Shown here: positions 13,553 to 55,644 of the stretch, in pieces
How positions within the stretch are numbered: position 1 is the first letter of the stretch
Layout of the letters: each line of letters opens with the position of its first letter
NCBI GenBank assembly: GCA_041663445.1
Contig: JBAYMR010000001.1
Span: forward strand, 47,393-111,392
Reading direction: 5' to 3'
DNA length: 64,000 bases
Source: Candidatus Micrarchaeia archaeon
GTDB lineage: Archaea > Micrarchaeota > Micrarchaeia > Anstonellales > Anstonellaceae
The notes under the pieces: generated by a model
Told to the model about the DNA's origin: nothing
Databases searched by the model: none
The model's input: the letters and a program-made list of their open reading frames with translations, nothing else
Translations under genes and position numbers: made by a program

Positions 13553-13565
13553 GCATCTATGATTC

Positions 13566-15032: not shown

Positions 15033-15352
15033 TGCGCGTGCTTGATTATGGGCGCGCCGCGCCAATATCCGCGCTCTTGCCGCGCATGAAAATTTCCTTG
15101 GTGTTTCGTGGCAGCGCGTATGGAGCCAAGTATAAATGGGCCAATTTAGGCGCCTGAATCGCGCTCGGCGCATAATCTTGCCCAATTGTACACGAGGCAA
15201 TAAGGTCAGTACGGCACAAAAGGAGGACATGGCACTTGGCATTCGCCTAGATCTGAGTGCATATGAAGCCAAAGGCAACCTGACCGTCCAGCTCAAGGAG
15301 AGCTTGACGCCATGTGGCAAAAAAGCGAAAAGCCAGTCAAAAAATCAAAAGT

Positions 15353-15415
15353 TTATCTCGATGACCCCAGGACAAAATGTAATAAGTTACGCCACGACCC
15401 CCTACTTTTGGCACT
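15353..15415. repeat. Dispersed repeat family, copy B
   Basis: tctcgatgaccccaggacaaaatgtaataagttacgccacgaccccctacttttggcac; ~85% identical over 50 bp to 16791-16840. Confidence 0.45.
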
Positions 15416-15509
15416 AAGTCACGTCGAAGGGGCTTTCACCCCCGATTCCATGACTTGGTAGCGTTAGTTTATGTATAAAGTTAAAAAAGAGATGCAGGTC
15501 TTCTGGCAA

Positions 15510-16616
15510 CTAAAGCGGCTTTGGTTCGATTACCTTCCCGCCGGATGCCACCACCATGCGGCGCCCATCTTCAAAGATAGCATAGACGTCAGCCCGTATC
15601 GGCGAGATGGGCGCGTAAACTACATCCTGGTGCGTGCTTGCATCCACAACTCCGCTCCACGACCCTTTCGTTCCGAAATGGATGTTTTTCCCGTACGCTA
15701 TGTGTACGCCTGCTTTTTCCTCTTCTAGTATGTTCCCAAGCCTGGCGCTCGGATTCAAGCCAAATCCGAGTTCGGCGACGTTTGCGGCATTCGGGTCCTT
15801 TTCTATCAGAGCCAGGAGCTTCCTCGCAAAAGCAGAGTCGCCCGGCACCCCCACTATCCGGTTTTTCTCTACGAGCAGGAGAACTGTCTTCCCGTCCTCT
15901 GCAGAATAGACGGGCCATACGCCCTCGGTTTGCGAATTTCCAATCGCCGCAAGGGCGCCAGGGTGCACGCCTTCATAGGGCGTGCAGTAAAATTCAGCGC
16001 CTGGCAGGTTTGTAAACCCGTCGCCCGGATTCCTGCTGAATCCGGGGCTCATGTGCCAGTTCGCGTGCCTTGTGTCGACATACAATGAGAAGACCAGTCC
16101 CGGGGGGACATTGAAAGTTATTTCAAACCCAACAGCATCCTTCACCATGTTCATGGCTTTGGAGCCAAGCTCATTCATGGCGTCATGGTCCACAGACATG
16201 GCGCCCTCATTGCTTGAAACCACTGTCGGCATGCTAAGCCCGCGAACCGACCCTGTTTGTTTTGCTATTTCTTTAAGGTCAGCGGTCTGCGAATAGGTTG
16301 TCATTGCGACGACAATGTCCGCAGATTTTATTATGCCAACCACATTGGAGACTGGTTCGCCTCCAAATAGTCCGTCGGAAGGAAAATTGGCATTGTGTTT
16401 GCCGGGTTCCGCATATTTTAGAAGGGGGAGCACCTGAAAGCCAATCCTTTTTGACAGGACGGAAGCGGCTTTCACCCATCTAAGCAAAAGGTCGCGCCTG
16501 TCCTGCCTTTCAGGGTCAAGAGGGCCGTTCGGCTCATCGGTTACAAAGAGCAGCTTTTCGCCTTTCTTCGGCTGGAGGGCGCTGATGATCAATTTTTGGA
16601 TTCTTTCCTGAGACAT
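15510..16616 (-). CDS. M29-family aminopeptidase (AmpS/PepS/aminopeptidase T-like)
   Basis: N-terminal region ...SALQPKKGEKLLFVTDEP... and C-terminal KAGVHIAYGKN, which matches the HIAxG motif of M29 peptidases. The ORF extends to 16838; start trimmed to MSQERIQ. Confidence 0.65.
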   Translation of the reverse strand: MSQERIQKLIISALQPKKGEKLLFVTDEPNGPLDPERQDRRDLLLRWVKAASVLSKRIGFQVLPLLKYAEPGKHNANFPSDGLFGGEPVSNVVGIIKSADIVVAMTTYSQTADLKEIAKQTGSVRGLSMPTVVSSNEGAMSVDHDAMNELGSKAMNMVKDAVGFEITFNVPPGLVFSLYVDTRHANWHMSPGFSRNPGDGFTNLPGAEFYCTPYEGVHPGALAAIGNSQTEGVWPVYSAEDGKTVLLLVEKNRIVGVPGDSAFARKLLALIEKDPNAANVAELGFGLNPSARLGNILEEEKAGVHIAYGKNIHFGTKGSWSGVVDASTHQDVVYAPISPIRADVYAIFEDGRRMVVASGGKVIEPKPL

Positions 16617-16790
16617 GTTCCCCGACAGTTTTTGTCCTGAGAAGTCTTTTGTTGAACCGCTACATCCTTTTTGACTGAAATAAATGTTTTTTCTGAAAAT
16701 CATGTACCCACCCAGTCCATTTTCTGCATAGAAGTGCTTAAAAAGAATGGGTTGTGGAAAGTGCTCTTTCCAGTCAAAAACAGTTTTCTT

Positions 16791-16881
16791 TCTCGATGGC
16801 CCCAAGACAAAACGTAATAGGATACGCCATGCCCCCATCGTGCGCTACCGGGTTATGACGTGCAACACTTTAAATAGGTTT
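16791..16881. repeat. Dispersed repeat family, copy C (contains the TATA box TTTAAATA at 16869-16876)
   Basis: tctcgatggccccaagacaaaacgtaataggatacgccatgcccccatcgtgcgctaccgggttatgacgtgcaacactttaaataggttt. The 3' ~60 bp is nearly identical to 18372-18430. It lies immediately upstream of the AbiEi-like gene. Confidence 0.5.
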
Positions 16882-17014
16882 CAAAAAACTTTGGGCTTGC
16901 TCGCCCGCCATTTCTTTCTCAAACCAATCCAAAATGACTATCATTTTGTCTTAAACCAAGACGAAATGATATCTCCAGATACCCTTAAAAACACTAGTTA
17001 CCTAATAGGTAACT

Positions 17015-17617
17015 ATGTATTCCGAAATTCCCTATGCCTGCATGCGCGCGTACGCGCTGCTCTTTTCTCGCTTCGGGGCAAGCCGCCCCTTCGCCCAATC
17101 GGAGCTGGATTTCGTTTTCTCCACCCCAATGAAGAAGAAGGTGTTTTCCATCCTGCTGAATGCAGGCTGGATAAGAAAGCGCGACAGGCTGAATTACCTG
17201 TGCAACGAGCCTGGCGAGGTATTCCGGCACCTGCTGGACTTCAAGGTGCCGCAAATGCTGGGGAAGGCGCAAAAGCCCTATGCGTTTTCCGGCCTCTCGG
17301 CAATCGAGGTGTGGAGCGACTACTCCTACACGCAGCGAAGCGTTGAGCGCTCGCCGTATTTCATCAGGGTGCTGCGCAGGGATCTGCCTTACTGGAAGGG
17401 ATTCTTTGCCGCAAAAAGGGTGCCAGTCTACGTTGGAAAGGGAACTTCTATTGGGGAGTTTGCTATCTTACAGCCAGCGGCAAAGCTGGAATCGGTTGAA
17501 AAGGACGGGCTGTCTGTCGAGCCGCTCCAGGATGCGATGGCCGAGGCAAGGGCGAATGAGATGCATTATTATGCGTATGAGTATATGAAAAAGAAATACG
17601 GGCGAATCAATGGATAA
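17015..17617 (+). CDS. Putative AbiEi-like antitoxin/transcriptional regulator (type IV TA), 200 aa
   Basis: Inferred from context only: a ~200-aa protein with an 8-nt overlap to the downstream AbiEii-like nucleotidyltransferase. I cannot confirm a wHTH from sequence alone. Confidence 0.4.
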   Translation: MYSEIPYACMRAYALLFSRFGASRPFAQSELDFVFSTPMKKKVFSILLNAGWIRKRDRLNYLCNEPGEVFRHLLDFKVPQMLGKAQKPYAFSGLSAIEVWSDYSYTQRSVERSPYFIRVLRRDLPYWKGFFAAKRVPVYVGKGTSIGEFAILQPAAKLESVEKDGLSVEPLQDAMAEARANEMHYYAYEYMKKKYGRING

Positions 17618-18299
17618 GTTTGCTGTACGCGAAAAGGAAGTGTTCGGCGCGCTCGAAGCGCTTGTGCACTCAAAGTGCAAGTTTGCCGTGATAGGCGGCT
17701 ATGCAGTGAATGCCTATGCCTTGCCCAGGTTTTCAGTGGACTGCGACCTTGTGGCAAGCAAGGATGGCGCGCGCAAGGTTGCTCACAAGCTGCTTGCATG
17801 CGGTTTCCATCGCGTACCTCTCCCAAAGCACGCGCCATACGTGAACTTCGTGCGCCTTGAAAAAGAAGTTCTGCCAAGTATTGTTGCGGCATTCGACATC
17901 CTTTATGATGAGGTGCACGACAGGCAGTCAGGCACAACTTTTACCGCGGAGTGGATATTTCTCCATTCATCCATAGTTTCTCTTCCGGCAAAGACATTTG
18001 CGGGTCAACTGAAGGTGCGCGTAGTAGACGCAGATACGCTTTTTGTGATGAAGTTCTGCTGCGCAAGGGCAACTGACATCCGGGACATTTTCATGTTCTG
18101 TGACAAGGTGAAAGACTGGGAATGGGCCAGGGCTGAAATTGCGGCGAGAATGGATTTGGCAGCGCAGCACAGGAAGATAATGCAAAAGGTGTCTGGCACG
18201 GAATTCAGGAAGGATTTGGGCGGCGTTTATGGCTATGTGGAGCCTGCGGCATTCGGAAAAAGGCTGAAAATCTTGGAAAGCGCGCTCAAAATTTCCTAG
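17610..18299 (+). CDS. AbiEii/DUF1814-like nucleotidyltransferase (putative TA toxin)
   Basis: NTase-fold signature FAVIGGYAVNAYALPRFSVDCDLV (GG...PRFS.D.D), characteristic of AbiEii/AbiGii-family nucleotidyltransferases. Confidence 0.6.
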   Translation: MDKFAVREKEVFGALEALVHSKCKFAVIGGYAVNAYALPRFSVDCDLVASKDGARKVAHKLLACGFHRVPLPKHAPYVNFVRLEKEVLPSIVAAFDILYDEVHDRQSGTTFTAEWIFLHSSIVSLPAKTFAGQLKVRVVDADTLFVMKFCCARATDIRDIFMFCDKVKDWEWARAEIAARMDLAAQHRKIMQKVSGTEFRKDLGGVYGYVEPAAFGKRLKILESALKIS

Positions 18300-18339
18300 G
18301 AAATGTGCTCTGCCGCAAGGTTAATTAACGCCGTACACA

Positions 18340-18430
18340 AAATAAGATTACATGGCATCGTCGACGAAGTTCACGCCATGCCCTCATCGTGCGCTACCGG
18401 GTTATGACGTGCAACACTTTAAATAGGTTT
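18340..18430. repeat. Dispersed repeat family, copy D (contains TTTAAATA at 18418-18425)
   Basis: ...cacgccatgccctcatcgtgcgctaccgggttatgacgtgcaacactttaaataggtttt; 2 mismatches over ~60 bp relative to copy C. Sits just downstream of the AbiEii-like gene, so copies C and D bracket the TA pair. Confidence 0.5.
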
Positions 18431-18484
18431 TAGGGAACTGGCGCAAGCCATTGGGAAATGCGCGGACTGCGCAGGCCAAGCGCT

Positions 18485-19195
18485 TTACCTGACCGGCAGG
18501 TATTTCCTGTAGTTCAGAAGCCTGTTGAGCGGCATTTTCGGGAAATCCGTTACAAGCCCCAGGTTTGCGTAGTAAAGCGCGGCCCTGAAAGTCCCGCTGC
18601 TCTCCAGCCTGCGCGCGGAAGTGGTGACCGTGGGCTCGGGAAGGAAAATCACCCGCCCGGCCTTGTGGAGCCTTTTTGCGAATGCACCGTCCTCAAGCGG
18701 GGCGTTCGGGAACCCGCCCGTCCGGAAGAATGTTTCGCGCCGCACTGCGTTGTTGAAGCCGAGTATCTCGCCCCTGCCGAATGCGCCCTTGATGAGCAGG
18801 TACTTGTTTGAAAGCTCCTGCACTGCGCCTAGCGTGCGGCTGCTTTTGTCGAACCGGAACGCGCACGACAGGCCCGAGATGCTTTTTTCGCGCATGACCG
18901 CGTGGACAGCCTCCATGTAGTTGCTCGGGATGCAGGTGTCGGCGTCCACGAATATGAAAAGGCTTCCCTTCGCCGCCTTTGCGCCCGCGTTCCTGCCGAA
19001 GGAGATGCCCTTCTTTTTGGACGTGACGAAGCGGTCCGCGCGCCTGAGGGCTATCTTGCGCGTCCCGTCCGTGCTTTGCCCGTCAGCCACAATAAGCTCA
19101 TAGTCAAGGGAAGTCTGCTGGCGCCTGATGGAGCGGAGGCACGAGGCAAGCAGCTTTTCCTCGTTCAATGCCGGAACTATTACCGAAACGTCCAT
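18485..19195 (-). CDS. Family-2 glycosyltransferase (DPM1-like)
   Basis: MDVSVIVPALNEE...LIVADGQSTDGT...FVDADT: GT2 N-terminal signature with DxD. Confidence 0.8.
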   Translation of the reverse strand: MDVSVIVPALNEEKLLASCLRSIRRQQTSLDYELIVADGQSTDGTRKIALRRADRFVTSKKKGISFGRNAGAKAAKGSLFIFVDADTCIPSNYMEAVHAVMREKSISGLSCAFRFDKSSRTLGAVQELSNKYLLIKGAFGRGEILGFNNAVRRETFFRTGGFPNAPLEDGAFAKRLHKAGRVIFLPEPTVTTSARRLESSGTFRAALYYANLGLVTDFPKMPLNRLLNYRKYLPVR

Positions 19196-19424
19196 GACGA
19201 ACCTCTGCGATGGCTTTCCCTTGTGCGATTTCTGCGCCAGGCAAGATTAAATAGGCATGTCAGCTTAAGGCAAATGCGCGGATGAGGATAAGTGGATTCT
19301 CTGAGCAGGGGCGGTGCTATCACACCGCCTTTGCCATGACGCCTAACACAATTACTGACGCGCAAAAAAAAACAGTAAAGCCCGGATTCTGTTGGCGCGC
19401 CGCGCAGCTCCTCTCGCGCAAAAA

Positions 19425-19808
19425 TCAGGAAGGCTCGTAAAGCTCTATAGGCAGCCCGTCGGGGTCGCGCAGGAAGCAGAACCAGGCGCAAGACGTGCCC
19501 TTGGAAGGCGCGTCTATGTCAAGCCCCTTGGCTGCAAGCTCGCGCTGCTTTTTTCTGACATCGGCAACCTCGATGGAAATGTGCTTGAGACCGAGCACTG
19601 ACAAGTTGGACAAGTCGTCTTTCCTGCCCACTGCATTTTGAAACTGGAAGATTTCCAATTGGAAACCCTCCAACTGCAGGACAACTGCGCTGCCCTTCCA
19701 ACCGGGCTTGGTGAACCGATTCACCTCAGTGAAGCCAAAATTTTCCTTGTAAAAACTGGCGGATGCTTCCAAATCCCGGACAGTCATTGCGATGTGGTGC
19801 ACACGCAT
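19425..19808 (-). CDS. VOC/glyoxalase-family protein
   Basis: HIAMTVRDLEASASFY...HISIEVADV...: paired beta-alpha-beta-beta-beta modules of the glyoxalase/bleomycin-resistance fold. Confidence 0.7.
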   Translation of the reverse strand: MRVHHIAMTVRDLEASASFYKENFGFTEVNRFTKPGWKGSAVVLQLEGFQLEIFQFQNAVGRKDDLSNLSVLGLKHISIEVADVRKKQRELAAKGLDIDAPSKGTSCAWFCFLRDPDGLPIELYEPS

Positions 19809-19911
19809 TGAAATCTTCCCCGCTTTTATTTCCGCCGAGCTATCCCGCGCGGTTTTTTCCGCAATCAGTTCTTATTTTTCCTTCCGGCCATTTCGCGCGC
19901 TTTTTCGGAAG

Positions 19912-21924
19912 TCATTTCTTCTTCGCGACCATTTCTTTTGCTTTTTGCGCAATGTGCTCTGCGGACAGGCCGAAGCGCCTGATGAGGTCCCAGGGCGCGC
20001 CGGTTTCCCCGAACCTGTCCTCAACGCCCATCATGTCGAACACCACAGGCTGCGCGCAATTGGTGAGTATGGCAGCGGCCACGATGTTCCCAAGCCCGCC
20101 CTTCTGGTGCTCCTCCACCGTCAGCACGCAGCCGCATCCGCGCGCGGCTGCGAGGATGGCTTGCTTGTCAAGCGGCTTGAGCGTGGAGAGGTTCACCACG
20201 CGCGCGGCGATGTGGAATTCCTCTTTCAATATCCAGGCCGCGCGCATTGCCTCCGCCACTTCGGGGCCGCAGGAGATTATCGCGATGTCCTCGTGCGCCT
20301 CTTTTGCGTCGGTGGAAAGCTGGTGGGTGAAGGCGTCGGCGAACTTAGGCTGCTCGCCGTTGTAGCGTATGATTGTCGCAATGCCGAACCTGTATGGGGT
20401 GGAGGGCGAGGTGATGATGGGCGTGGGCTCGCGCGCAAAGCGGAGGTAGCACGGGCCGTTTATCTGGTCAATCATCGCGGCGGTTGCCTTTTTCGTCTCT
20501 GCCATGTCGCAGGGGATGAGAAGGCTCATGTTGGGAAGCCCGGCTATCTGGAAAATCTCCTCAAGCGCCTGGTGCGTGGCGCCGTCAGGCCCGACGGATA
20601 TCCCGCCGTGCGCGCCCACAATCTTGACGTTCCAGTTGCCGTAGCACACTGTCGTCCTCACCTGGTCAAGCGCGCGGCCCGCGGCGAAAACGCCATAGGT
20701 GCCGAAGAACGGTATCTTGCCCTCCTTCGCCATGCCCGCGGCAACGCATGTGCCGGACTGCTCGGCGATTCCCATTGAGAAAAAGCGGCCCTTGCGCTCG
20801 GGCCTGTTCTTGTAGAACATGTTTATCGAGATGGAACCGGAGATGTCCGCGCCGAGCGCGACCACGTTCGGGTTTTCATTCTGCTCAAGCTCGTCGCCAA
20901 ACCCGTCCTTGGTGGATTTCATTTCCACTTTCATTTTCTCCTGCGCGTTCCACCAGTAGTTGCGCGAAAACCTGGGCATTGCCGCTTCGATGGCGGCGCC
21001 CACTTCCTTTTGGTGGGCCGCTGCAAGCGCAATCATTTCGTCCTTGGGAAGGCGCTGCATGCCAAGCTCGGAAAGGGCCGCTTCCAGCTCGTCCTTTTTC
21101 GGCGCGCGCCCGTGCCAGCCAGCCTGGTTTTCCATGAATGAGACGCCCTTGCCCTTCACGGTATTTGCGATTATCACCGTGGGCTTGCCTTTTGTCCGCG
21201 CGGCTTCCTCGAACGCGGCGATGAGTGCCTCGATGCTGTGCCCGTCGGCAACGATGACATGCCAGCCGAACGCGCGGTATTTCTCGTCAATGGGGTCAAT
21301 GCCCATCACGTCGCGCACCGCCCCGTCAATCTGCAGGGAGTTCTTGTCCACTATGCCCACGAGGTTGTCGAGCTTGTAGTGCGCAGCCTCCATCGCCGCC
21401 TCCCAAATCTGCCCCTCCTGCTGCTCCCCGTCGCCCATCAGGCAATAAACGCGGTAGCCTTTGCCGTCCAGGCGGGCGGCGAGGGCGTCGCCGACAGCAA
21501 TGCTTAAGCCTTGCCCGAGCGAGCCGCAGGATGCCTCGATGCCCGCGCATTTTTTCCTGTCAGGGTGCCCGCAGAACGGCGAGTCCATCTTGCGGAGCAG
21601 CGCGGTCTGCTTGACGTCGAAATAGCCCGTGTAGCCGAGGGGGATGTACCATGCCGGCGCCTTGTGGCCTGCGGAGAAAAAGAGCCTGTCGCGCGCATCC
21701 CAGGCAGGGTCGGACGGCTTGTGGCGCATGGTGCGGAGGTAAAGGGTGGAAACGACGTCCATGCAGGACAATGTGCCGCCCGTGTGCCCGCTTCCCGCGC
21801 AGTGGAGCGCGATGAGGGAGTAGCCGCGCATTTCAGCAGCGGCCCTTGCAATCTCCGGTGCGGAATAGTTTTTTTCGTTGCCGTTCGCGTCGAATATCCC
21901 CATATTACCAACCTTGACCTGCAT
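19912..21924 (-). CDS. tkt: Transketolase (single-chain N+C)
   Basis: GHTGGTLSCMDVVSTLY, the TPP-binding GDG...E...N region, and C-terminal Pyr/TK-C domains. ORF trimmed to the internal Met so it does not overlap the aminotransferase gene. Confidence 0.9.
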   Translation of the reverse strand: MQVKVGNMGIFDANGNEKNYSAPEIARAAAEMRGYSLIALHCAGSGHTGGTLSCMDVVSTLYLRTMRHKPSDPAWDARDRLFFSAGHKAPAWYIPLGYTGYFDVKQTALLRKMDSPFCGHPDRKKCAGIEASCGSLGQGLSIAVGDALAARLDGKGYRVYCLMGDGEQQEGQIWEAAMEAAHYKLDNLVGIVDKNSLQIDGAVRDVMGIDPIDEKYRAFGWHVIVADGHSIEALIAAFEEAARTKGKPTVIIANTVKGKGVSFMENQAGWHGRAPKKDELEAALSELGMQRLPKDEMIALAAAHQKEVGAAIEAAMPRFSRNYWWNAQEKMKVEMKSTKDGFGDELEQNENPNVVALGADISGSISINMFYKNRPERKGRFFSMGIAEQSGTCVAAGMAKEGKIPFFGTYGVFAAGRALDQVRTTVCYGNWNVKIVGAHGGISVGPDGATHQALEEIFQIAGLPNMSLLIPCDMAETKKATAAMIDQINGPCYLRFAREPTPIITSPSTPYRFGIATIIRYNGEQPKFADAFTHQLSTDAKEAHEDIAIISCGPEVAEAMRAAWILKEEFHIAARVVNLSTLKPLDKQAILAAARGCGCVLTVEEHQKGGLGNIVAAAILTNCAQPVVFDMMGVEDRFGETGAPWDLIRRFGLSAEHIAQKAKEMVAKKK

Positions 21925-46892: not shown

Positions 46893-49523
46893 CTACACGA
46901 CCTTGCCGCGGGCAAACGCCTCGTTCCCGCCGCCCTTCCCACCGTGCGACTTGAGAAGCTCAACCGCGTTCATGCCGCTTCCCTTGGGCGCGGCTGCGGC
47001 AATGAAGCCGTCCGCTACCGAAACCACCGCCGCGAGATTCTGCGCGGAAAGCTTTGCGCAGATTTCCTCTGCAAGCTTTTGCGTGTAGGGGGCGTTGAGC
47101 AGCTCGACCACGTTCTTGCCGGCTGCCTTTGCCTTCGCAGCCTCTGTTTCGCTGATTTGCTGCGCAAGGAGCGCCTGCAGCTTCTCCACTTCCTTGCCGC
47201 GCTCCTTCCATTCGTTGAAGAACCGCATTATGGCTGGCTTGAGCTGGTCCTCGGGCACTGCCAAGGCTTCGGCAGCCTCGCGCAGCAGCCTTTCGCGCTC
47301 CTGGATGTGCTTGACGGCCTCAGGGCCGCATTTGATGACCACTCGTTCCACCCCGTCCTGCACCCCCTCGCGCCTGACAATCTTCACAAGCTCAAGCTCG
47401 CCGGTGCTTTTGATATAATTGTGAGTGCCGCCGCACGCCTCGTGGTCTATATCGCCGATTGAAACCACGCGCAGCACCTTGCCGGGCACTGCCCCGCCCT
47501 GATACAGCCTGAAGCCGTATTTCTGCTCGGCTTCAGTCCTGCCGAGTATTTCCGTAACCACTGGCAGGCCCTCAAGCACGTACCTGTTTGCAAGCTGCTC
47601 GATTCTCTCAAGCTCGTCCCACGTTATCTTTTTGTAGTGCGTCAGGTCGATTTGCGCCTTGTGCTCGTCCTTGTATGAGCCTGCCTGCCAGATGTGCGGG
47701 CCGAGCACTTGCCGCGCGCAGGCGTTGAGCAGGTGTATCGCGGTGTGGTGCCTTGTAACCTGCCTGCGCCTTTCCCCGTCCACCTTGCCATGCACGCCCA
47801 TGCCTGCGGAGAATTCGGCGGGCCTTTCCACCTCGTGCAGGACCACGCCCTTTTCCTTCTGGGTGTTTTTCACCTTGATTCCGTTGAGCGTGCCGACGTC
47901 GTAAATCTGCCCGCCGCCCTCCGGGTAGAACGCGGTGGAATCGAGGATGACGTACTTGCCCTTCACGGCAAGCACTTTCGCGTCGAATTCCTCGACTGAA
48001 TCATAGAACAGCGTTTTCGTCCTCTCGTGCCCGGCAACGTCAATTTTCTTTTCAACCGGCTCGCCGGTTTCCCCGCTTTTCTCCATGAGGGTGTAGAAGT
48101 TCTCGGGCACGTTCACCTTGGCGCCCTTCTCCTTGCCAAGCTCGGAGACTAGTTCGGGCGGGATGCCGTCGGACTCGTAGAGCTTCTTGAGCTCCTCAAC
48201 GCCGATTGGCTTGCCGCGCGACAGGAGCGACGCCACCTTGCCCCTGCCCTTTTCCTTGCTGGCGGCGTATTTCTTCCTCTCCTCGCCTATCACCGCGATT
48301 GCCGTCGGCACGCCTTCCTTGAGCTTGGGCGCAAAATCGCGCAGGTGGCGCGCGTGCGCCTCAAGCACGCCAGCGTAATCAAGCGAAAGCGAGAACTCGC
48401 CGTCGAAGCCGAACACGCGGCGCAGTATCATGCGCAGGTTGTAGCCGCCGCCGGAGTTCGACGGCAGCATGCCGTCCGTCGAAGTGAACAGGATTGTCTT
48501 GAGGTGGTCGGCGCATGCGTAGGCCGCGTGGAGGGGCGCGAATGTGGATTGCATCTCATCTGCGGACATGCCGAGCTTTTTCGCAACAGACGCCTTTTCC
48601 GCGCCGATGTCGGCAACGTCGTCAATGTCCAGCGAGCCTGAAAGCTTGGAGTATTCGAGGAACAGCTTCTGGTCCACGCGTATCCCCGCTTTTTCCTGTA
48701 TCATGGAAACCGCATCGCCGAAGACAATGTCATAGCTGACGGGCGAGGCGTGAGTTATCCACGACAGCCTCTCAAGCCCAGCGCCCATATCAATCACTTT
48801 GGTGGAAAGCTCGCGGCTGCCGCCGTCCGGCGTGTTCTCGTACTGCATGAACACGCAGTTGCCAAGCTCGAGCCCGTCCGCAAAATACTCTATGCACGGG
48901 CCGAAGTTGCCCCCGCCCATCCAGACGTCCTCGAGGAAAACGATGTTCTTCTCGTCAATGCCGAGGTGCGACAAGTAGCCGATGTCGTGGCGTATCGCCT
49001 CGTCCTTCCAGTAGAAGTTGCCTGTTTTCTTCGTGTTGAAGGCGTGCTGGCCCACCATGACGAAGTTCGTGTAGTGCCTGCCCGTGACGCCAACGTTAGA
49101 GATGTCCGGGAAGCGTATGCACTGCTGCGGCACCACGAGCGGGTTGGCCGGCGGGTCAAGCTCGCCCGAGACCACGTAGGGCTGGAAGTCGTTTATCGAA
49201 GCTATTGAGAAGTACAGGTCGTCGCGCCAGCGCGCCACGGTCGGGAACGATTCGATGGACGCATGCCCGTTCTTCGTGAAATATTCCTCTATCCTTTTCC
49301 ACGTCTCCACGTACCCGAGCGGGTTTTTCGCCATCTTCTTGCCGATGAACTTGTAGCCCATGCAGGACGCGTCCGAGCATATTTCGCGCGCCTCGACAGA
49401 CCAGAAGTGCCGCTTGCATTTCGCGCACTGCTGGCGGGTGTACCCGCGCTCGACAAGCGCGCCCACCTTGTAGTGCTTTTCCCAGTCGCGCCCGAATTGC
49501 GCGCGCAGCTCCTTCTTGTCCAT
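46893..49523 (-). CDS. alaS: Alanyl-tRNA synthetase, archaeal type
   Basis: Full-length 876-aa AlaRS with an archaeal N-terminus (…RGYTRQQCAKCKRHFWS…), editing domain (HTAIHLL…) and C-terminal DHHA1-like region. Confidence 0.95.
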   Translation of the reverse strand: MDKKELRAQFGRDWEKHYKVGALVERGYTRQQCAKCKRHFWSVEAREICSDASCMGYKFIGKKMAKNPLGYVETWKRIEEYFTKNGHASIESFPTVARWRDDLYFSIASINDFQPYVVSGELDPPANPLVVPQQCIRFPDISNVGVTGRHYTNFVMVGQHAFNTKKTGNFYWKDEAIRHDIGYLSHLGIDEKNIVFLEDVWMGGGNFGPCIEYFADGLELGNCVFMQYENTPDGGSRELSTKVIDMGAGLERLSWITHASPVSYDIVFGDAVSMIQEKAGIRVDQKLFLEYSKLSGSLDIDDVADIGAEKASVAKKLGMSADEMQSTFAPLHAAYACADHLKTILFTSTDGMLPSNSGGGYNLRMILRRVFGFDGEFSLSLDYAGVLEAHARHLRDFAPKLKEGVPTAIAVIGEERKKYAASKEKGRGKVASLLSRGKPIGVEELKKLYESDGIPPELVSELGKEKGAKVNVPENFYTLMEKSGETGEPVEKKIDVAGHERTKTLFYDSVEEFDAKVLAVKGKYVILDSTAFYPEGGGQIYDVGTLNGIKVKNTQKEKGVVLHEVERPAEFSAGMGVHGKVDGERRRQVTRHHTAIHLLNACARQVLGPHIWQAGSYKDEHKAQIDLTHYKKITWDELERIEQLANRYVLEGLPVVTEILGRTEAEQKYGFRLYQGGAVPGKVLRVVSIGDIDHEACGGTHNYIKSTGELELVKIVRREGVQDGVERVVIKCGPEAVKHIQERERLLREAAEALAVPEDQLKPAIMRFFNEWKERGKEVEKLQALLAQQISETEAAKAKAAGKNVVELLNAPYTQKLAEEICAKLSAQNLAAVVSVADGFIAAAAPKGSGMNAVELLKSHGGKGGGNEAFARGKVV

Positions 49524-49581: not shown

Positions 49582-49654
49582 GGGCTCGTGGTGGAATGGT
49601 TAACACGCTGCTCTCACACAGCAGAGATTCGCGGTTCGATCCCGCGCGAGCCCA
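49582..49654 (+). tRNA. tRNA-Val (anticodon CAC)
   Basis: Canonical cloverleaf folded by hand: acceptor GGGCUCG/CGAGCCC, D-stem GUG/CAC, anticodon arm CUGCU-CUCACAC-AGCAG, T-arm CGCGG-UUCGAUC-CCGCG, discriminator A; no encoded CCA. Confidence 0.85.
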
Positions 49655-49662
49655 TTAGACAA

Positions 49663-49695
49663 ACCTCACAGGGGGCTGCCGCCCCCTCGCGGTTT
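49663..49695 (+). terminator. GC hairpin plus T-run downstream of tRNA-Val
   Basis: cagggggctgccgccccctcg followed by cggttttt. Confidence 0.35.
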
Positions 49696-49730
49696 TTCCT
49701 TGATTTCCCCTTCACCCCCTTAAGATAAAG

Positions 49731-49866
49731 AAGATTCGCGGTTCGAGCATCGAATGAGAAGCATTCGGTGCGAAGTCGTCATCAGCACGACTACGATCGC
49801 CAACTTCCGCAGAAGTTGGGGAGACAGAAGGGCCGCAACCCTTCTGGATCCCGCGCGAGCCCATTG
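49731..49866 (+). other. Partial copy of tRNA-Val (positions 44-73) split by a 102-nt structured insertion in the T-loop (after nt 58)
   Basis: agattcgcggttcga [102 nt] atcccgcgcgagcccatt matches tRNA-Val 3' region exactly. The insert folds into four hairpins: GCAUCGAAUG/CAUUCGGUGC, GUCGU/ACGAC, CCAACUUC/GAAGUUGG, AGAAGGG/CCCUUCU. Confidence 0.55.
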
Positions 49867-50365: not shown

Positions 50366-50536
50366 ACCACCTGCACCACTTATGCACACTTCAATATTTA
50401 AAGCGAGCGCCGGAGCCTGCAAAATGCGCATCCGCTGCCAAAAATGGCCTGAGGGCGCTTTTTTATTGCTTTCCCTGCTTATCTCCCTTGCGCTCCCATC
50501 CAGGGGAATCAGTCCCCTGCCTGGAAGCGCTAACGC

Positions 50537-50704
50537 GCTCCCATAGTCTAGTGGCTGACTTCGGTGCAATTGTGCACCGGCGCGAGCCGGACAACCCGGT
50601 CAAGGACGGAGCCCTCTCATGGCCCTTTTCGACGTATCGAAAAGCGTTCACGGAAATTTTTCCTGAGAAAGGCTCTAACTCGGGTTCAAATCCCGATGGG
50701 AGCG
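50537..50704 (+). tRNA. tRNA-Glu(CUC)-like gene with two putative intervening sequences (pseudogene not excluded)
   Basis: 5' GCUCCCA-UA-GUCUAGUGGCUGAC (acceptor + D arm) and 3' UCGGG-UUCAAAU-CCCGA-UGGGAGC-G (T arm + acceptor) pair perfectly. An internal anticodon arm GAGCC-CUCUCA at 50609-19 pairs with GGCUC at 50671-75. Intervening sequences: 50561-50608, and 50620-50669 at the canonical 37/38 site. CUCA can pair with the intron 3' UGAG, leaving an AAA bulge (BHB-like). Confidence 0.4.
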
Positions 50705-50835
50705 TTTTATTTTTTCTTCAGAAAAAATGAAACAGGTTGTGAGGCATCACGACTGCGAATTTTCTTTTTTTACTTTTAACACCTCAACGACGTAATACAC
50801 TTTGAACAATTCTTTATATACAGCAGCCGCGATAG

Positions 50836-52617
50836 TTGAGCATGCCTACTCCAGGTATGGTTCAGATTGACCCTGTGCAGAGACAGACGTCTGCCACAGC
50901 AGATGTGTTTGATGCACGGCAGACAGCGCTTCAGGCGAAGCAGGATGTCAACCTTCTTATTGAGAAGTTGAAAAGCGAACTTCAATCATCCAAGCACGAA
51001 AGTCTTCAGATATTAAGCTCATTTCCAATCCCGATAAAAAAAGGACACGAATGGGAAATGAGGGAGACCTATCGTAAGGCAGCCTGCGATGCCAATGACC
51101 TTCTGAGAAAGGAGGGAGCGCCCATTGCCATCTGGCTAGAGGATGTTGGTGACAAGTTCCATATTGTGACTGGAAGATATGAGGAGCGAACGCCCAAAGT
51201 AATGCAAATTGAGGAAAAGATGCCGCAGGTCGTGCAGAGCGAAGAAGGTGGAAAGGCAGTTCCAGCAGTCACGCCCATATTCGACTTGACCGAAACTGAT
51301 AGAAATGAACTTTGTGTCACAAATGAGGTGCTGGCAGGCATGAAGCCCAATCAGTTGACAGATGGGCAATGGAAAGTGCTGAACAAGATTATGGATAAAA
51401 CAGCGGAGCACATATATGGGAAGAATTTCGACAAGCTTTCACAAGGCAGGAAAATCAATGTGCTGCGACACATATTCTCTCCCCACACCGATGAGGGAAA
51501 GGAACTTGGGTTTACATATTCTGGGAGCGCCGAGTTGAAAATAGCTGCGGAAACATTATCTTCTCTGAAGGGAGACTGTGATGACTTCTCGTTCTTGTAC
51601 ATAGCTTGCGCAAACCGCCTGGATGGCGAAGGCAGGCTGCATGTAAAAGACATAAAGCTGGCAGTTGTTGACTATTACGACCCAAAGAACAATGAAATCG
51701 GGGCGCATGCAAATGTCTTTCCCGTCGTCCTCAACAAGGTTGGCGGAAAGAGGGCAAAGATATTCCTTGTCGATTTGACTTTCAACACATCTACAACGCC
51801 GTTAGGACATAAGGAAAATGAGATTGATGCGAAAAACGACAAGTTCAGAGACAAATTCCTTGGACACATGAACGAGAGCAGGGAAGAAAAGAAAATCGAG
51901 GTAATGGAATTGCGCCTCTATGACGGTTTCACGGGGCTGCTTGCCTACTATTACACAAACAATGGGGCGACTCTTGCAAAGGAAGCTAAAGATATTGGCA
52001 AAAACTCCGAGAAGCAGATCGATGCACTCATGAAACTCGATGAATACGACAAGGTAGTGGCGATTTACCAGGACATAGACAATAAATTTGAGGATGCAAA
52101 GAAAGCCCTCAATGGAGCAATCGAGATTGGAAAAGAGAGCGGCTGCAACTATGGGGATGCGCTTGTTAGGATGGGCATCCTTTACTATGGACAGGGCAGC
52201 AATCTGATAAACTGGAGCACGCCACTATCCGCAAGCGGGAAATCGGAGGATGGCACAAAGAAAACAGCGAAAGGCATTGAACTCCACAGCGATTGCTACG
52301 CATATTTCAAAGAAGCGCTCGAACTACCAGACGTCAGTTCATTCGTGTTGAACGAGGGGGCAAAAGTGCTACGCGAGAGCCTGAACTCGGAAGGATATCT
52401 AATCGCAGAACAGATGGTTGTCAAGGCAATCAAGGCAGCACCATTCAAGCCAGAACTCTACGAAACGCTGCTGTCAATCATGAACAAGGAGGGCAAAACC
52501 TCAGAGGCTTTGAAGCTTTTGCAGGAGTATATAAAGGCCCCTGGGCTGCCTCCAGAAGTCAAGAAAATGATTGATGGTTTGATAACCGAGGCAGCGGGAG
52601 TACCCACTGAGCACTAG
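50836..52617 (+). CDS. Transglutaminase-like cysteine-protease-fold domain + C-terminal TPR-like helical repeats (593 aa), in a low-GC island
   Basis: Cys-His-Asp arrangement typical of the transglutaminase-like core: GDCDDFSFLYIACANRL ... GAHANVFPVV ... IFLVDLT. C-terminal amphipathic helical repeats. Local GC ~45% versus ~60% on the contig. Confidence 0.5.
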   Translation: MSMPTPGMVQIDPVQRQTSATADVFDARQTALQAKQDVNLLIEKLKSELQSSKHESLQILSSFPIPIKKGHEWEMRETYRKAACDANDLLRKEGAPIAIWLEDVGDKFHIVTGRYEERTPKVMQIEEKMPQVVQSEEGGKAVPAVTPIFDLTETDRNELCVTNEVLAGMKPNQLTDGQWKVLNKIMDKTAEHIYGKNFDKLSQGRKINVLRHIFSPHTDEGKELGFTYSGSAELKIAAETLSSLKGDCDDFSFLYIACANRLDGEGRLHVKDIKLAVVDYYDPKNNEIGAHANVFPVVLNKVGGKRAKIFLVDLTFNTSTTPLGHKENEIDAKNDKFRDKFLGHMNESREEKKIEVMELRLYDGFTGLLAYYYTNNGATLAKEAKDIGKNSEKQIDALMKLDEYDKVVAIYQDIDNKFEDAKKALNGAIEIGKESGCNYGDALVRMGILYYGQGSNLINWSTPLSASGKSEDGTKKTAKGIELHSDCYAYFKEALELPDVSSFVLNEGAKVLRESLNSEGYLIAEQMVVKAIKAAPFKPELYETLLSIMNKEGKTSEALKLLQEYIKAPGLPPEVKKMIDGLITEAAGVPTEH

Positions 52618-52623
52618 AGGGCG

Positions 52624-53238
52624 CTATCTTGGGACTGGTTCAGTTACTTTCTGGTTTCTCAGATGCTTGAGTTCCTGCCATTCTTCAAGCAATGCCTTCA
52701 CTTCCGCTGGTGTGTGGATTTTGAAGGCGTTCGATGGGGTTGCGCCCTTGTCGCTGAGAAAAGCAACACGCAATTCGTTCTTTGCATTCTCCCAGCGGCG
52801 CTCAAGTTCCACCCTATCTTCCTTGGAATATGAATTGAGGACTCTACCAGACAGACCGAAAGGCGGAGTGTAGTTTTCTGCATCCAGCCAAGCAGCACGG
52901 AAAGCGCCTAGCTCTGGTTTTTTCTCTGAAAATGTCTTGTCACTTAGCGAATTGGAATACGGCATGTAATGTTCAAGCGTCCTTACATCTGGAATTACCA
53001 GTTTAGGGATAGTGTCCATCGTCTTTGTCGTGTCTTTCTTCGCCTGTTCTATTGACTTGAAAGCCCCGGTTTGCATCAACAGCACGGTGTCACCCCCTTT
53101 TTTTGTTCCTTTGTTCTGCGAATATACCTTGGTAAATATGCCCGAAGTAAGTAAAAAAGCACCTGTAAGGAAGATAGCAGCGCCCACTCTGGAGACATGA
53201 CCTGTTTTTTGCCTGAAATGAGCCGTCTTGACGTGCAT
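52624..53238 (-). CDS. Hypothetical secreted/membrane-anchored protein (204 aa), low-GC island
   Basis: N-terminal hydrophobic segment VGAAIFLTGAFLLTSGIF; convergent with the transglutaminase-like gene. Confidence 0.4.
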   Translation of the reverse strand: MHVKTAHFRQKTGHVSRVGAAIFLTGAFLLTSGIFTKVYSQNKGTKKGGDTVLLMQTGAFKSIEQAKKDTTKTMDTIPKLVIPDVRTLEHYMPYSNSLSDKTFSEKKPELGAFRAAWLDAENYTPPFGLSGRVLNSYSKEDRVELERRWENAKNELRVAFLSDKGATPSNAFKIHTPAEVKALLEEWQELKHLRNQKVTEPVPR

Positions 53239-53392
53239 GCATCTATTCTGTCTTCTGGGCTATATAAAGGTAATTTCTCAGAAGAAAATCAGCACATCAC
53301 CCACTGAGAGTTTTTATTTTTTTACCCGATTTCTCACTAAATAAAACTATATTTAAAAAGGCTTCGCAACAGGAAACGATTCAGGTGAAAAG

Positions 53393-53785
53393 ATGGCGAC
53401 GCTTGAAACAAAACCGCTAGAAAAAACCCTGCCGATGGCATTCAAGGTTTCAGGGAACAGGTACCTGGTGATGGCGAAATCCAACGATGACGGGAGGCTG
53501 AGGGTTTCAGCTTTCATAGGGAAGATACTGGACAAGGAACCGCCGCTGAAGGAAGGCGAACGGATATACTGGATTGCCGCCGGGCAGATGGACGACGGAA
53601 GGAAAGACAGCCCGAGAAAAGGGCACATATTCTACAAGGGAGTTGACGACAAAGAGGCTGCCGGCGTATGGAACGCAATTGATTCCGACAGGGCACGAGT
53701 AGACTGGGCATTCATCTCCAGAGTGCTTAAGCCAGGGACTCCGATAACTCCGTTTGTGGAGCTGAGCAAGGCCGGAAAGAACTAA
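53393..53785 (+). CDS. Hypothetical protein (130 aa)
   Basis: ORF only; normal contig GC. Confidence 0.4.
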   Translation: MATLETKPLEKTLPMAFKVSGNRYLVMAKSNDDGRLRVSAFIGKILDKEPPLKEGERIYWIAAGQMDDGRKDSPRKGHIFYKGVDDKEAAGVWNAIDSDRARVDWAFISRVLKPGTPITPFVELSKAGKN

Positions 53786-53821
53786 GGCGTGCGTCGCAGA
53801 TGCCAGAATGAAGGTGCTTAA

Positions 53822-54547
53822 ATGGTCAATGCCCCAAGTATAGTAAGGAAAGGGATGGTGAACGACAAGGAATCGGCAGGGGACGCGGCGCTTGATTCGT
53901 TCCACAAGGTGATGAAAAAGATGCCCCGGCTGCGCGAGGGCAAGGCAGGGGATGGCAGCGCATGGCTGGCAGGGGCCTGCAAGGATAGGGGCGCGGGCTT
54001 TGGCATGGTCGTGGCGGAGGGGCCGCAAATCATCTCGGCAATCAGGCTTGGTGGCGGGAATGCAACCGCATTTTCCAAGCGCGGGATTTCGAAAATCGGG
54101 GAAATCCATGAATGCCGCACCTACTGCGTGGCTACGGTGGAAGGCGTGGAATTCGCCTCGAAGGGGGCGTTCTGGATGTGGTCGGCGTCAAAAGACTACC
54201 ACGACATATGCGGGCACCTCAACGGGCTGCAGGCATATGACGCAACCGGCGGGGTTGACATCGCGATTATTGGCGGCGCGGCTGAACTCCTGAAGGGAAG
54301 CGTGCAGACAAAGCATGGCAATTACAGCTTCAGCTTCTTCGCAAGGAATTTTGCCGAGGGCAAAAAGGCAATCAGGTGCGACTATTCTATGCTGCTTGAG
54401 GGGGAGAACGTCTGGAACGCCGCTCAGGCGCAGCAGGACGGCACGCTGGAAAAAATATTCAACAAGATGCGGGCGGCTGCGAAGAAAATGTTCCCGAGCG
54501 AAATGTGGGGGCAGGTAAAGCTGGAAAACGTGATTGGCGCGCCCTAG
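53822..54547 (+). CDS. Hypothetical protein (241 aa)
   Basis: ORF only; several Cys/His (HECRTYC, HDICGH). Confidence 0.4.
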   Translation: MVNAPSIVRKGMVNDKESAGDAALDSFHKVMKKMPRLREGKAGDGSAWLAGACKDRGAGFGMVVAEGPQIISAIRLGGGNATAFSKRGISKIGEIHECRTYCVATVEGVEFASKGAFWMWSASKDYHDICGHLNGLQAYDATGGVDIAIIGGAAELLKGSVQTKHGNYSFSFFARNFAEGKKAIRCDYSMLLEGENVWNAAQAQQDGTLEKIFNKMRAAAKKMFPSEMWGQVKLENVIGAP

Positions 54548-55644
54548 CGCACGTATTCTTCCGCCGCTTTCACGATGTTCTGGAAGAAGCGCAGGCTGTT
54601 TTTCTCGTAGGAGATTCCCGCAGTGAAGCGCGGGAACTGCGTCCTGTACATGCTGCATTCGGGGTGGGGCATGAGCCCCAGAATCTTGCCCGTCCTGTCG
54701 CAGATGCCCGCGATGTCATAAGGTGAGCCGTTCGGGTTGGCAGGGTAGCCTGGGGAGTCGGACATCTTTTCATCGGTGTAGCGCAGCGCCACCATGCCCT
54801 GCCTCTTGAGCGAGGCAAGAAGCTCGGAGTCGCGCGGAACGAACTGCCCCTCGCCGTGCCTGACAGGGCACTGGATGAATGATACGCCCTCGAAGTATTT
54901 GCACACCGACTTTTGCGGCTTGAGGTAGACCCAGCGGTCCTCGAACCTGCCGCTCTTGTTGAACGTGAGCGTGGACTCCTGGGAAGACGAGCCGGACAGG
55001 TTCGGCAGCGCGCCAAGCTTCACCAGTGTCTGGAACCCGTTGCACACGCCGAGCATTGGCTTGCCGGATGACACGAACTCGTCGAACTGCGCCCGGAACG
55101 TGCTCTTGAGCTTGTTGGAAAGCACGCGCCCGCCAGCGATGTCATCGCCGAACGACCAGCCGCCGGGTATTGCGAATATCTCGTAGTGGGACAGCTTTTC
55201 CCTGCCCGATGAAATGTCCGAGAAGTGCACTATCTTCGCATCGGCCCCTGCAAGGCAGAATGCGTGCGCAAGCTCAGCCTCGGCATTCAGGCCAAAGCCG
55301 GCGAGCACGATGCAGCGCGGCCTGCGCTTTTCCGCTGCGGACGGCAAAGCATGCACGGCTGCAGTGCGCCTTTGTTTCGCAGGGGCACTGGCCGGCTTTT
55401 TCGCAGCGCCCGCCCCGGATGGCTTTTTCGCATTTGCCGCCCTTGCCTTTGCTTTTGCCGCCATCATCTTCACCGTCTTTTTCTGCGCGCGCCGTTTGGC
55501 CGCCATATTTTTCGCCGAGGGCTTGGCTTTTTTATTCGCCGCCCCGCCCGCCATCTTCTTCACTGCCACTTTGGTTTTTTTCTTCGCTGGGGGCTTGGCT
55601 TTTTTCCTTGCAGTTCCCCTGCCCGCTGTTTTCCCTGATGCCAT
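54544..55644 (-). CDS. purQ: Phosphoribosylformylglycinamidine synthase subunit PurQ (glutaminase) with an apparent ~100-aa Lys/Ala-rich N-terminal extension
   Basis: Class-I GATase: CIVLAGFG..., GVCNGFQ catalytic Cys, HPE... C-terminal region. The N-terminal KKAKPPAKKKTK... extension may instead reflect a mis-called start. Confidence 0.8.
   Translation of the reverse strand: MASGKTAGRGTARKKAKPPAKKKTKVAVKKMAGGAANKKAKPSAKNMAAKRRAQKKTVKMMAAKAKARAANAKKPSGAGAAKKPASAPAKQRRTAAVHALPSAAEKRRPRCIVLAGFGLNAEAELAHAFCLAGADAKIVHFSDISSGREKLSHYEIFAIPGGWSFGDDIAGGRVLSNKLKSTFRAQFDEFVSSGKPMLGVCNGFQTLVKLGALPNLSGSSSQESTLTFNKSGRFEDRWVYLKPQKSVCKYFEGVSFIQCPVRHGEGQFVPRDSELLASLKRQGMVALRYTDEKMSDSPGYPANPNGSPYDIAGICDRTGKILGLMPHPECSMYRTQFPRFTAGISYEKNSLRFFQNIVKAAEEYVR

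Follow-up and report, generated by a model that had tools for sequence, protein, structure and literature searches.

The tRNA-Val locus and its partial copy

The window analysed here, 64 kb in its full length, is part of a 164.9-kb contig of a Candidatus Micrarchaeota/Micrarchaeia MAG. It carries an AlaRS gene on the minus strand and, divergent from it, an intact tRNA-Val(CAC) gene without an intron, which is complete by itself and whose orthologues adjoin AlaRS in relatives (Table 1). The ends of the tRNA gene as called by ARAGORN and Rfam were 49581/2-49654/5. The spacer that follows contains a terminator-like hairpin (49670-49687), a run of five T residues (49693-49697) and an A/T-rich TATA-like box (49719-49730), the last of these being a putative promoter.

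Beyond the spacer lies a partial copy of the same tRNA gene. Its left flank consists of the variable region, the 5′ strand of the T stem and TTCGA of the T-loop, and is the second exact occurrence, over 15 nt, of AGATTCGCGGTTCGA, which represents tRNA-Val positions 44-58. Its right flank was detected with a repeat finder (family D10) as the exact second occurrence of GATCCCGCGCGAGCCCATT, found in the tRNA gene at 49638-49656. Because the two flanks overlap by the dinucleotide GA, the break between them can be placed at 56/57, 57/58 or 58/59. A 22-mer and a 26-mer of tRNA-Val had no further match in the window at up to three mismatches, where shuffled sequences expect none, and the matches in the partial copy are not due to chance. 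The sequence-only reading of this DNA had described exact tRNA-Val repeats split by about 100 hairpin-rich nucleotides; inspection of the sequence, a script and the repeat finder all confirmed this, with coordinates shifted by one base. It had also remarked that no 5′ half adjoins the copy. Positions 1-43 of tRNA-Val were found neither next to the copy nor elsewhere in the 64-kb window, and the copy is therefore not inside a complete tRNA gene able to form a cloverleaf.

The 102 nt between the flanks were predicted to fold into four hairpins with a free energy of -48.6 kcal/mol (z = -5.95), and none of 200 shuffled sequences folded as well. For the whole partial copy the z value was -6.3 on the plus strand and -3.6 on the minus strand. 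An independent assembly, Logan SRR6484787, contained the same sequence with 100% identity over 13.8 kb, so the partial copy is not an assembly artefact.

Table 1. Features of the tRNA-Val locus and of other tRNA genes in or near the window
Feature	Position	Strand	Basis or remark
tRNA-Trp	4782-4878	-	
tRNA-Trp 3′ exon, decaying copy 1	4690-4776		T-loop broken by 48-nt hairpin insert
tRNA-Trp 3′ exon, decaying copy 2	4643-4683		
AlaRS	46893-49523	-	divergent from tRNA-Val
tRNA-Val(CAC), intact, no intron, functional gene	49582..49654	+	ARAGORN; Rfam tRNA model, 66 bits; orthologues adjoin AlaRS in relatives
Spacer S	49655..49731	+	read from sequence
Left flank L, exact copy of tRNA-Val positions 44-58	49732..49746	+	sequence reading and script
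First half of insertion, two hairpins	49747..49794	+	fold; alignment with L007; shared motif order
GAT, probable deletion joint	49795..49797	+	comparison with L023
Second half of insertion, unit B insert	49798..49846	+	homology to unit B of L055, L026 and L023
Right flank R, exact copy of tRNA-Val positions 57-73 plus two trailer bases (TT)	49847..49865	+	repeat finder family D10, 19/19 identical
tRNA-Glu 5′ end, 10-nt copy plus 35-nt hairpin	50490-50534		5′ of tRNA-Glu
tRNA-Glu(CUC), D-loop and anticodon-loop introns	50537-50704		
tRNA-Ser(GCU), 92-nt T-loop intron	about 4.7 kb past window end; L022 5285-5460		

ARAGORN and Rfam detected only four tRNAs in the window, and multi-intron tRNA genes of this lineage were missed by both programs. 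The tRNA-Glu(CUC) gene downstream of the partial copy has introns in the D-loop and in the anticodon loop. Related genomes contain tRNA-Val genes with D-loop introns and tRNA-Glu genes with T-loop introns of 42-130 nt. Introns of about 100 nt in the T-loop, as invoked by the sequence-only reading, are real in this lineage, that of tRNA-Ser(GCU) beyond the end of the window being an example. Such intron-rich tRNA genes fit what has been reported for ARMAN-2/Micrarchaeum, in which 56% of tRNA genes are disrupted, T-loop introns are located at 53/54 and 59/60, and the epsilon2 endonuclease cuts relaxed motifs (PMC3239211).

Tandem units in relatives and the composite insertion

The locus was compared with a set of 51 AlaRS loci, and the tRNA-Val flank was examined in those loci that include it. 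Several of them carry related units downstream of tRNA-Val, singly or in tandem. Each unit has the form (AGA)CTCCCGGTTCGA, then an insert, then GATCCCGGGCGAGCCCA with a further 2-4 nt; in terms of the tRNA it comprises positions from about 44/46 to 58 and positions 57/59-75, the latter with the 3′ strand of the acceptor stem, and between them, at the T-loop, an insert of two hairpins. In L023, whose AlaRS is 90% identical to that of the window, tRNA-Val is followed by a 69-nt spacer, unit A, AAG and unit B. The corresponding order is 9 nt, unit C, CTAAT and unit B in L026 (AlaRS 89% identical), 5 nt and unit B in L055 (91% identical, over the first 93 aa only), and about 32 nt and unit A in L007 (78% identical). 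Spacing between units inside the arrays is 3-9 nt, which leaves no space for a promoter or leader, and 5-76 nt separate the tRNA from the first unit. Short motifs such as TTCACCCCC appeared by eye to be common to the spacer in the window and to the sequence after tRNA-Val in L023 and L031.

The ends of the units are not uniform. Outer boundaries vary from position 40 to 46 on the left and from +2 to +4 on the right, and the sequence upstream of the left flank is different in every lineage. Unit B of L055 has hybrid flanks, with a left T stem CGCGG as in the tRNA of the window and a right CCGGG of the resident type. Unit C of L026 carries GCGAAGATTGCCGG and has a left flank unlike the resident tRNA of that locus, and the flanks of unit B in L023 and of unit A in L007 carry substitutions. 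The T-stem halves are unpaired in L055 unit B, L026 unit C and L023 unit B. A T-loop insert was present in all eight tRNA-Val units and in none of about 35 functional tRNA-Val genes.

Comparison with these units indicated that the 102-nt insertion is composite. Window positions 49798-49865 aligned with unit B over 40 invariant columns (alignment A2; shuffle test, P ≤ 0.0005), and the match spans the joint CGA|(T/C)CGCCAAC, which is the end of the left flank in L055 and L026. By homology, the second half-insert and the right flank of the window copy are those of a unit B, with hairpins B1 (CCAACTTC/GAAGTTGG) and B2 (CAGAAGGG/CCCTTCTG). The first half contains the hairpins GCATCGAATG/CATTCGGTGC and GTCGT..ACGAC. 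Its position and its shape, in which a hairpin of about 10 bp with a purine loop comes first, are like those of the unit A insert, and it shares with that insert the order GAAGTCG...CGAC(T/C)A(C/A)GATC; the similarity of the two sequences was not significant alone (P = 0.15-0.19). The left flank and first two hairpins of the window copy are therefore best regarded as probable derivatives of a unit A. At the joint L023 reads ...CGACCAA GATCCCGGGCGAGCCCATT AAG ACTTCCAGTTCGA CCGCCAAC..., and relative to it the window lacks about 33 nt, namely the 3′ flank of unit A, the spacer and the 5′ flank of unit B. A deletion of about 33 nt would have joined unit A and unit B into an apparent single copy with a 102-nt insertion. 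Since the 3′ half of the insert is homologous to B and the 5′ half is A-like, the two exact flanks most likely come from different ancestral units. Alternatively, 46-49 nt may have been inserted into a unit B, in which case the insertion would be composite too.

The units vary between strains. They were absent from L003, L025, L011, L029, L004, L017, L028, L005 and L018, in which tRNA-Glu directly follows tRNA-Val. Between L003 and L055 identity is 100% both across the 536 nt from the start of AlaRS to the 3′ end of tRNA-Val and across 61 nt of tRNA-Glu. What distinguishes them is a 975-nt segment that opens with unit B and further comprises a gene of 204 aa, a different promoter for tRNA-Glu and the tRNA-Glu 5′ fragment. 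A search of relatives for an empty site, as the sequence-only reading had proposed, hence yielded both unit-free loci and a difference in presence at the strain level (L003 vs L055): units have been gained or lost between otherwise identical strains. The genes between tRNA-Val and tRNA-Glu vary as well: the window has an ORF of 145 aa there, L055 one of 204 aa, and L023 several genes, including one for a GHMP kinase.

The hairpins of unit B are conserved as structures. Across the aligned sequences 93.7% of cells were paired, and 5 of 16 pairs showed compensatory change, a covariation that rests on four sequences, effectively two lineages; none of 500 shuffles reached the observed pairing, and slid controls were 24-60% paired. 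The B1 stem is invariant across these four sequences, again effectively two lineages. G-T wobble pairs of the hairpins point to the plus strand orientation. Conservation of this kind suggests selection on RNA or single-stranded DNA, now or until recently, and is unexpected for junk, so that it is a point against a pure junk model.

Fragments and shared inserts at other tRNA genes

Interrupted fragments also accompany other tRNA genes. Behind tRNA-Trp, on the minus strand of the window, come two copies of the 3′ exon of that gene, both decaying and one of them with a T-loop broken by a hairpin insert (Table 1). The tRNA-Trp array was also sought in relatives by way of a neighbouring gene for a 148-aa protein, which led to one contig that was not syntenic. 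The tRNA-Glu gene is preceded by a copy of its 5′ end joined to a hairpin; this fragment is found in L006, L018, L024, L025, L027, L029 and L055 as well, and its stem shows compensatory change. Upstream of tRNA-Val, a 5′ fragment consisting of positions 1-21, a two-hairpin D-loop insert and positions 22-37 is present in L003, L055, L018, L023 and L006/L032.

Some of the inserts are related to one another and to functional introns. The D-loop insert of the tRNA-Val 5′ fragment matched the functional tRNA-Glu T-loop intron of L034 at 21 of 22 nt, and that of L029 over a stretch of 36 columns (P < 0.0025). Insert C of L026 matched the insert in the tRNA-Trp fragment of the window at 17 of 18 nt (P < 0.0005). 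The 102 nt of the window gave no significant match among the functional introns tested, and neither the window nor about 400 kb of related loci contained a further copy of inserts A, B or C. Two further candidate relationships were not adopted. Derivation of the tRNA-Glu 5′ hairpin from a shortened L011-type T-loop intron was marginal, with P = 0.01 for one pair and the others not significant. Correction for the 110 comparisons made removed the significance of an 11-mer common to unit A of L007 and the intron of tRNA-Ser (P = 0.0075).

Origin of the partial copy

The partial copy is probably a non-functional, chimeric pseudogene fragment made by recombination, the local version of a strain-variable array of tRNA-Val 3′-end units, and on the best reading of these data it has no role in tRNA-Val production. 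The mechanism that we infer for the units is the least certain part of this account. Incoming DNA with a contiguous tRNA-Val 3′ end, derived from an integrating element or from a related strain, would recombine with the resident gene upstream of the T-loop. This would restore an uninterrupted tRNA-Val and displace the old 3′ end, with whatever its T-loop contained, to a position downstream. Serial replacement of the 3′ end would stack the units, and a local deletion of about 33 nt, removing the right flank of A, the spacer and the left flank of B, would then yield the form seen in the window. Displacement of this kind would cover the universal T-loop inserts on one condition, that introns capable of being spliced were present in the T-loops of the ancestral genes.

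Direct repeats of tRNA 3′ ends that integrating elements leave behind (attL/attR), and the accretion of such repeats in tandem, are known in archaea from SSV-type and pNOB8-type integration. As in those systems, an intact tRNA is here followed by stacked partial copies of its own 3′ end, the array lies at the edge of a strain-variable region, and some units have hybrid left and right flanks. Of the three ideas put forward in the sequence-only reading, that of an att-type scar comes closest to the data. What stood was the presence of tRNA 3′-end direct repeats (exact repeats of 15 nt and 19 nt in the window, arrays in relatives) stacked after an intact tRNA at the border of a variable region. 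A recognisable element did not come to light: neither alongside the arrays nor within the low-GC island at 50.8-54.5 kb could an integrase or a viral or plasmid gene be identified, including by searches of the ORFs with PHROGs and Pfam, and two scans of viral collections for an attP-like copy, made with the unit B core and the 3′ end of tRNA-Val, returned no hits. In contrast to attL/attR systems, neither an integrase nor an element body is present, spacers are only 3-76 nt long and the outer boundaries are blurred; simple attR sites are uninterrupted, whereas every copy here is broken at the T-loop by conserved hairpins. An outer boundary that varies from position 40 to 46 fits poorly with a single integrase core, and with only 5-76 nt between the tRNA and the first unit any element body would have been almost wholly deleted in every case. 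A further archaeal example is the Caldiarchaeum tRNA locus in which a tRNA fragment and a change of intron were ascribed to a mobile element that had integrated there (Sugahara et al. 2012; PMC3293823). As with the tRNA-Thr fragment there, and with attL/attR systems in general, the intron state of the working gene differs from that of the fragment, and the window copy, so read, parallels the Caldiarchaeum model, in which integration leaves a fragment and an altered intron state (PMC3293823). Two other mobile-element candidates were rejected. A miniature element derived from IS200/IS605 (PATE) was discarded because the ends are unlike those of the resident TnpB element and no other copies occur in the window or the fetched loci, and an integron attC-like reading of hairpin B1 (AAC...GTT) because the hairpin is too short, cassettes in one orientation are lacking and there is no IntI.

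One alternative regards the partial copy as a 3′ half from a split or tri-split tRNA gene, with an intron in the T-loop, which splicing endonuclease and ligase would join to a 5′ half encoded elsewhere; this is very improbable. In its favour, tRNA genes with several introns and T-loop introns close to 100 nt in length do occur in the lineage, and ARMAN-2-type endonucleases accept relaxed motifs (PMC3239211). Against this, the product would be identical to that of the complete gene 76 nt upstream, which already contains the same 3′ part, so that the copy supplies nothing the genome lacks. The supposed intron is a fusion of two units. The units differ in presence among strains and are spaced 3-9 nt apart in arrays. 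No orphan tRNA-Val 5′ half was found in the 64-kb window and about 9 kb on each side, about 83 kb in all, at up to three mismatches or with ARAGORN. Nor was there a helix through which position 43/44 might be linked to a partner: TAAAGA, the hexamer directly preceding the copy, is by reading unable to pair with the anticodon stem. The proposal of a split or tri-split gene, made in the sequence-only reading together with a search for the missing 5′ half, is thus not supported. Use of the copy as an alternative 3′ exon, attached after position 43 of the complete gene, was rejected, since it allows no helix and would yield an identical product. The split and tri-split tRNA genes of Nanoarchaeum equitans and Caldivirga maquilingensis and the permuted genes of Thermofilum (PMC3218864) offer a likeness in that a stand-alone tRNA 3′ part is found in a DPANN archaeon. 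Known split tRNAs, however, are broken at 25/26, 29/30 or 37/38 and have a GC-rich leader complementary to the trailer of the partner, and their own promoter, whereas the window copy starts at position 44, duplicates a complete neighbour and has no detectable leader helix.

Splicing signals bear on the same question. The sequence-only reading had proposed that GUUCGA and UCGAAU pair as a relaxed BHB; the pairing proved to be a hairpin with a 3-nt loop, which is not bulge-helix-bulge geometry. We applied a strict BHB test, consisting of a 4-bp central helix between exon nt -6 to -3 and intron nt -6 to -3 with the splice sites in the flanking bulges, for which the background pass rate is 2.2% per register. 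None of seven units had such a core, and the window copy failed in all three registers. The strict motif was present in five bona fide introns of the lineage, those in the T-loops of tRNA-Ser and of L011 tRNA-Glu and in the D-loops of L011 tRNA-Val, L009 tRNA-Val (by eye) and the tRNA-Glu of the window. Real introns that failed were those of the window tRNA-Trp, which has no such helix at all, and of the tRNA-Glu T-loop in L029 and L034 (by eye), while the anticodon intron of the window tRNA-Glu passed only with a shift of one nucleotide. Because about 40% of real introns are missed, the test is not decisive for the window copy and is supporting only in aggregate; a lack of recognisable bulge-helix-bulge in some real introns weighs, to that extent, for the split gene.

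It is also improbable, if less so, that the unit works as a small RNA or as a structured 3′ trailer of pre-tRNA-Val, transcribed from the plus strand, in which four hairpins closed by the T-stem halves would do the work. Its fold is very stable (z about -6, stronger on the plus strand), B1 and B2 show compensatory changes, hairpin 1 of unit A differs in sequence but not in shape among the window, L007 and L023, and in these three loci a TATA-like box was read about 24 nt upstream of the joint between flank and insert. The distribution is patchy, however: most close relatives have no unit, nor does one strain that is in other respects identical to a carrier. The B units of arrays have no promoter space, the closing T-stem halves are unpaired in the three units named above, the window version is 33 nt shorter than that of L023, and Rfam gave nothing relevant over the partial copy even at E ≤ 5. 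A C/D-box sRNA was rejected by eye, as proper C and D boxes are absent on both strands. A further alternative, unlikely on present evidence and still easier to entertain than either of these, is that the inserts belong to a class of selfish elements, small, structured and akin to the tRNA introns of this lineage, which target tRNA loops (the T-loop after TTCGA, the D-loop after GGTTA). An unspliceable insertion would kill the gene, and the survivors would be lineages rescued by unequal recombination, which leaves an intact copy beside the interrupted piece; this would account for the insert in every fragment. The same T-loop position is occupied in all eight tRNA-Val units and in no functional tRNA-Val gene of about 35, insert C resembles the tRNA-Trp fragment insert (17/18 nt, P < 0.0005) and the D-loop insert the tRNA-Glu introns of L034 (21/22 nt) and L029 (P < 0.0025), the stems are conserved with compensatory changes, and TnpB elements of the IS200/IS605 type are active at the tRNA-Val locus in relatives. 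Inserts A, B and C, on the other hand, have no other copies in the window or the roughly 400 kb of fetched loci, show neither terminal inverted repeats nor regular target duplications, and are not linked to a transposase, and the rescue step is hypothetical. Compared with the non-canonical BHB introns of archaeal tRNA genes, the window copy is alike in that its break lies at a known intron position (56/57 to 58/59), and the lineage has real T-loop introns similar in size and hairpin content as well as insert families common to different tRNAs. It differs in having no BHB core, in a host "gene" without positions 1-43 and in carrying an insert that is a fusion product.

The chimeric pseudogene fragment that we favour has implications for annotation: in DPANN genomes, an exact half-copy of a tRNA that contains a structured "intron" is not necessarily a split gene. 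Prokaryotic tRNA gene fragments have been described as mis-annotated tRNA genes (PMC9897764), and these too are partial, non-functional pieces beside real genes; that work is focused on annotation and apparently does not cover units interrupted at the T-loop.

How the interrupted, split and permuted tRNA genes of archaea arose is an old open question. Fujishima et al. are said to have described, in 2010, non-canonical and multiple tRNA introns in the Thermoproteales and to have proposed their transposition. According to one proposal, mobile elements that integrate into tRNA genes drive intron gain and loss and fragmentation, for which evidence is thin and comes mainly from one Caldiarchaeum locus. 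The present Micrarchaeota clade offers many states of one locus, namely intact genes, intron-bearing genes, and 5′ and 3′ fragments with loop inserts, together with presence or absence of units between identical strains and insert families common to different tRNAs and to real introns; these many related states make the question testable by comparative genomics and RNA sequencing. A bolder and rather doubtful possibility is that the units are footprints of a new process in Micrarchaeota, in which two-hairpin, intron-related elements occupy T- and D-loops and a fresh contiguous copy bypasses the interrupted piece. If this were true, the arrays would document the fragmentation of tRNA genes and the gain and loss of introns as they happen, and a new type of mobile element directed at tRNA loops would have the conserved hairpins as its active part.

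tRNA genes, tRNA fragments and introns

The features described here are collected in the table; L numbers denote fetched DNA loci, most of them AlaRS loci of relatives.

Features of the window and its flanks (window coordinates unless a locus is named)
Feature	Position	Strand	Remarks
HerA/FtsK/TrwB-like ATPase region	452-3211, and L020 (before window start) 12761-21282	minus (452-3211)	
tRNA-Trp 3′ exon copy 2	4643-4683	minus	decay further along than in copy 1
tRNA-Trp 3′ exon copy 1	4690-4776	minus	48-nt hairpin insert in T-loop
tRNA-Trp gene	4782-4878	minus	
tRNA-Glu 5′ fragment	50490-50534		10-nt copy of tRNA-Glu 5′ end plus 35-nt hairpin, upstream of tRNA-Glu
tRNA-Glu(CUC)	50537-50704		introns: D-loop 43 nt, anticodon-loop 50 nt
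Low-GC stretch	50800-54540		GC 0.49 versus 0.58-0.60; between tRNA-Glu and purQ
PurQ-type glutamine amidotransferase (GATase_5)	54544-55644	minus	
tRNA-Ser(GCU)	L022 (beyond window end) 5285-5460	+	same contig, ~4.7 kb past window end

The tRNA-Trp gene is followed on its 3′ side by two tandem copies of its 3′ exon (4643-4776, minus strand), which start at position 38 and are separated by spacers of 4-6 nt. The T-loop insert of copy 1 shares 17 of 18 nt with insert C, carried by a tRNA-Val unit (a 3′-end fragment downstream of intact tRNA-Val) of the relative's locus L026.

Neither ARAGORN nor Rfam called the two-intron tRNA-Glu(CUC). The hairpin of its upstream 5′ fragment ends in AGCGC, resembling an acceptor 3′ strand. 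L006 and further loci retain this fragment, and its stem shows a compensatory change there. L029 contains two such units in tandem; the first copy is preceded by the promoter-like sequence TTTTTTATT. tRNA-Ser(GCU), which ARAGORN did not call at L022 5285-5460, has a 92-nt multi-hairpin intron in the T-loop (58/59) with a clean GTTC/GAAC bulge-helix-bulge core.

Neighbouring protein-coding regions

The low-GC stretch contains five ORFs (591, 204, 130, 230 and 145 aa), for which Pfam and PHROGs gave no match except a weak TPR. The adjacent PurQ-type protein is extended at its N terminus by ~110 aa in which Lys and Ala are very abundant (AKKKTKVAVKK...); this stretch resembles a histone tail or nucleic-acid-binding segment.

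The HerA-like ATPase (919 aa) begins ~1.4 kb away from the array of tRNA-Trp fragments. Of the eight ORFs that come after it, one matched HTH_10 and the other seven had no Pfam match. The ATPase and these ORFs may represent an old integrated element; no integrase was seen in the region.

Possibly mobile modules and the element beside tRNA-Val

In L003, L055, L018, L023 and L032, tRNA-Val 5′ fragments with a two-hairpin D-loop insert lie upstream of tRNA-Val. Functional tRNA-Glu genes in other relatives have a T-loop intron homologous to this insert, with 21/22 nt shared (loci compared: L034, L042 and L029). This homology suggests movement of intron-like modules from one tRNA to another and from one loop position to another. 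Introns, unit loops and spacers repeatedly contain small hairpins with the pattern C(A/T)TTTTGC-loop-GCAAAA(A/T)G or CTTTTTCGC-loop-GCGAAAAAG, which resemble a set of related miniature palindromic modules. They occur in L024, in the loop of L023 unit B, and in the anticodon introns of tRNA-Glu in L011, L024 and L029.

An IS200/IS605-type element of ~1.2 kb, with a TnpB-like ORF starting MKAYKFRIYPSK..., lies between AlaRS and tRNA-Val in L004, L010, L017, L026, L028, L037 and L038. The tRNA-Val fragment CACGTCGCTCTCACAC (positions 22-38) directly abuts its end. In four of these genomes, the anticodon stem of the working tRNA-Val is CTGCT, not TCGCT. If the flank were the TnpB guide, the working tRNA-Val would evade targeting.
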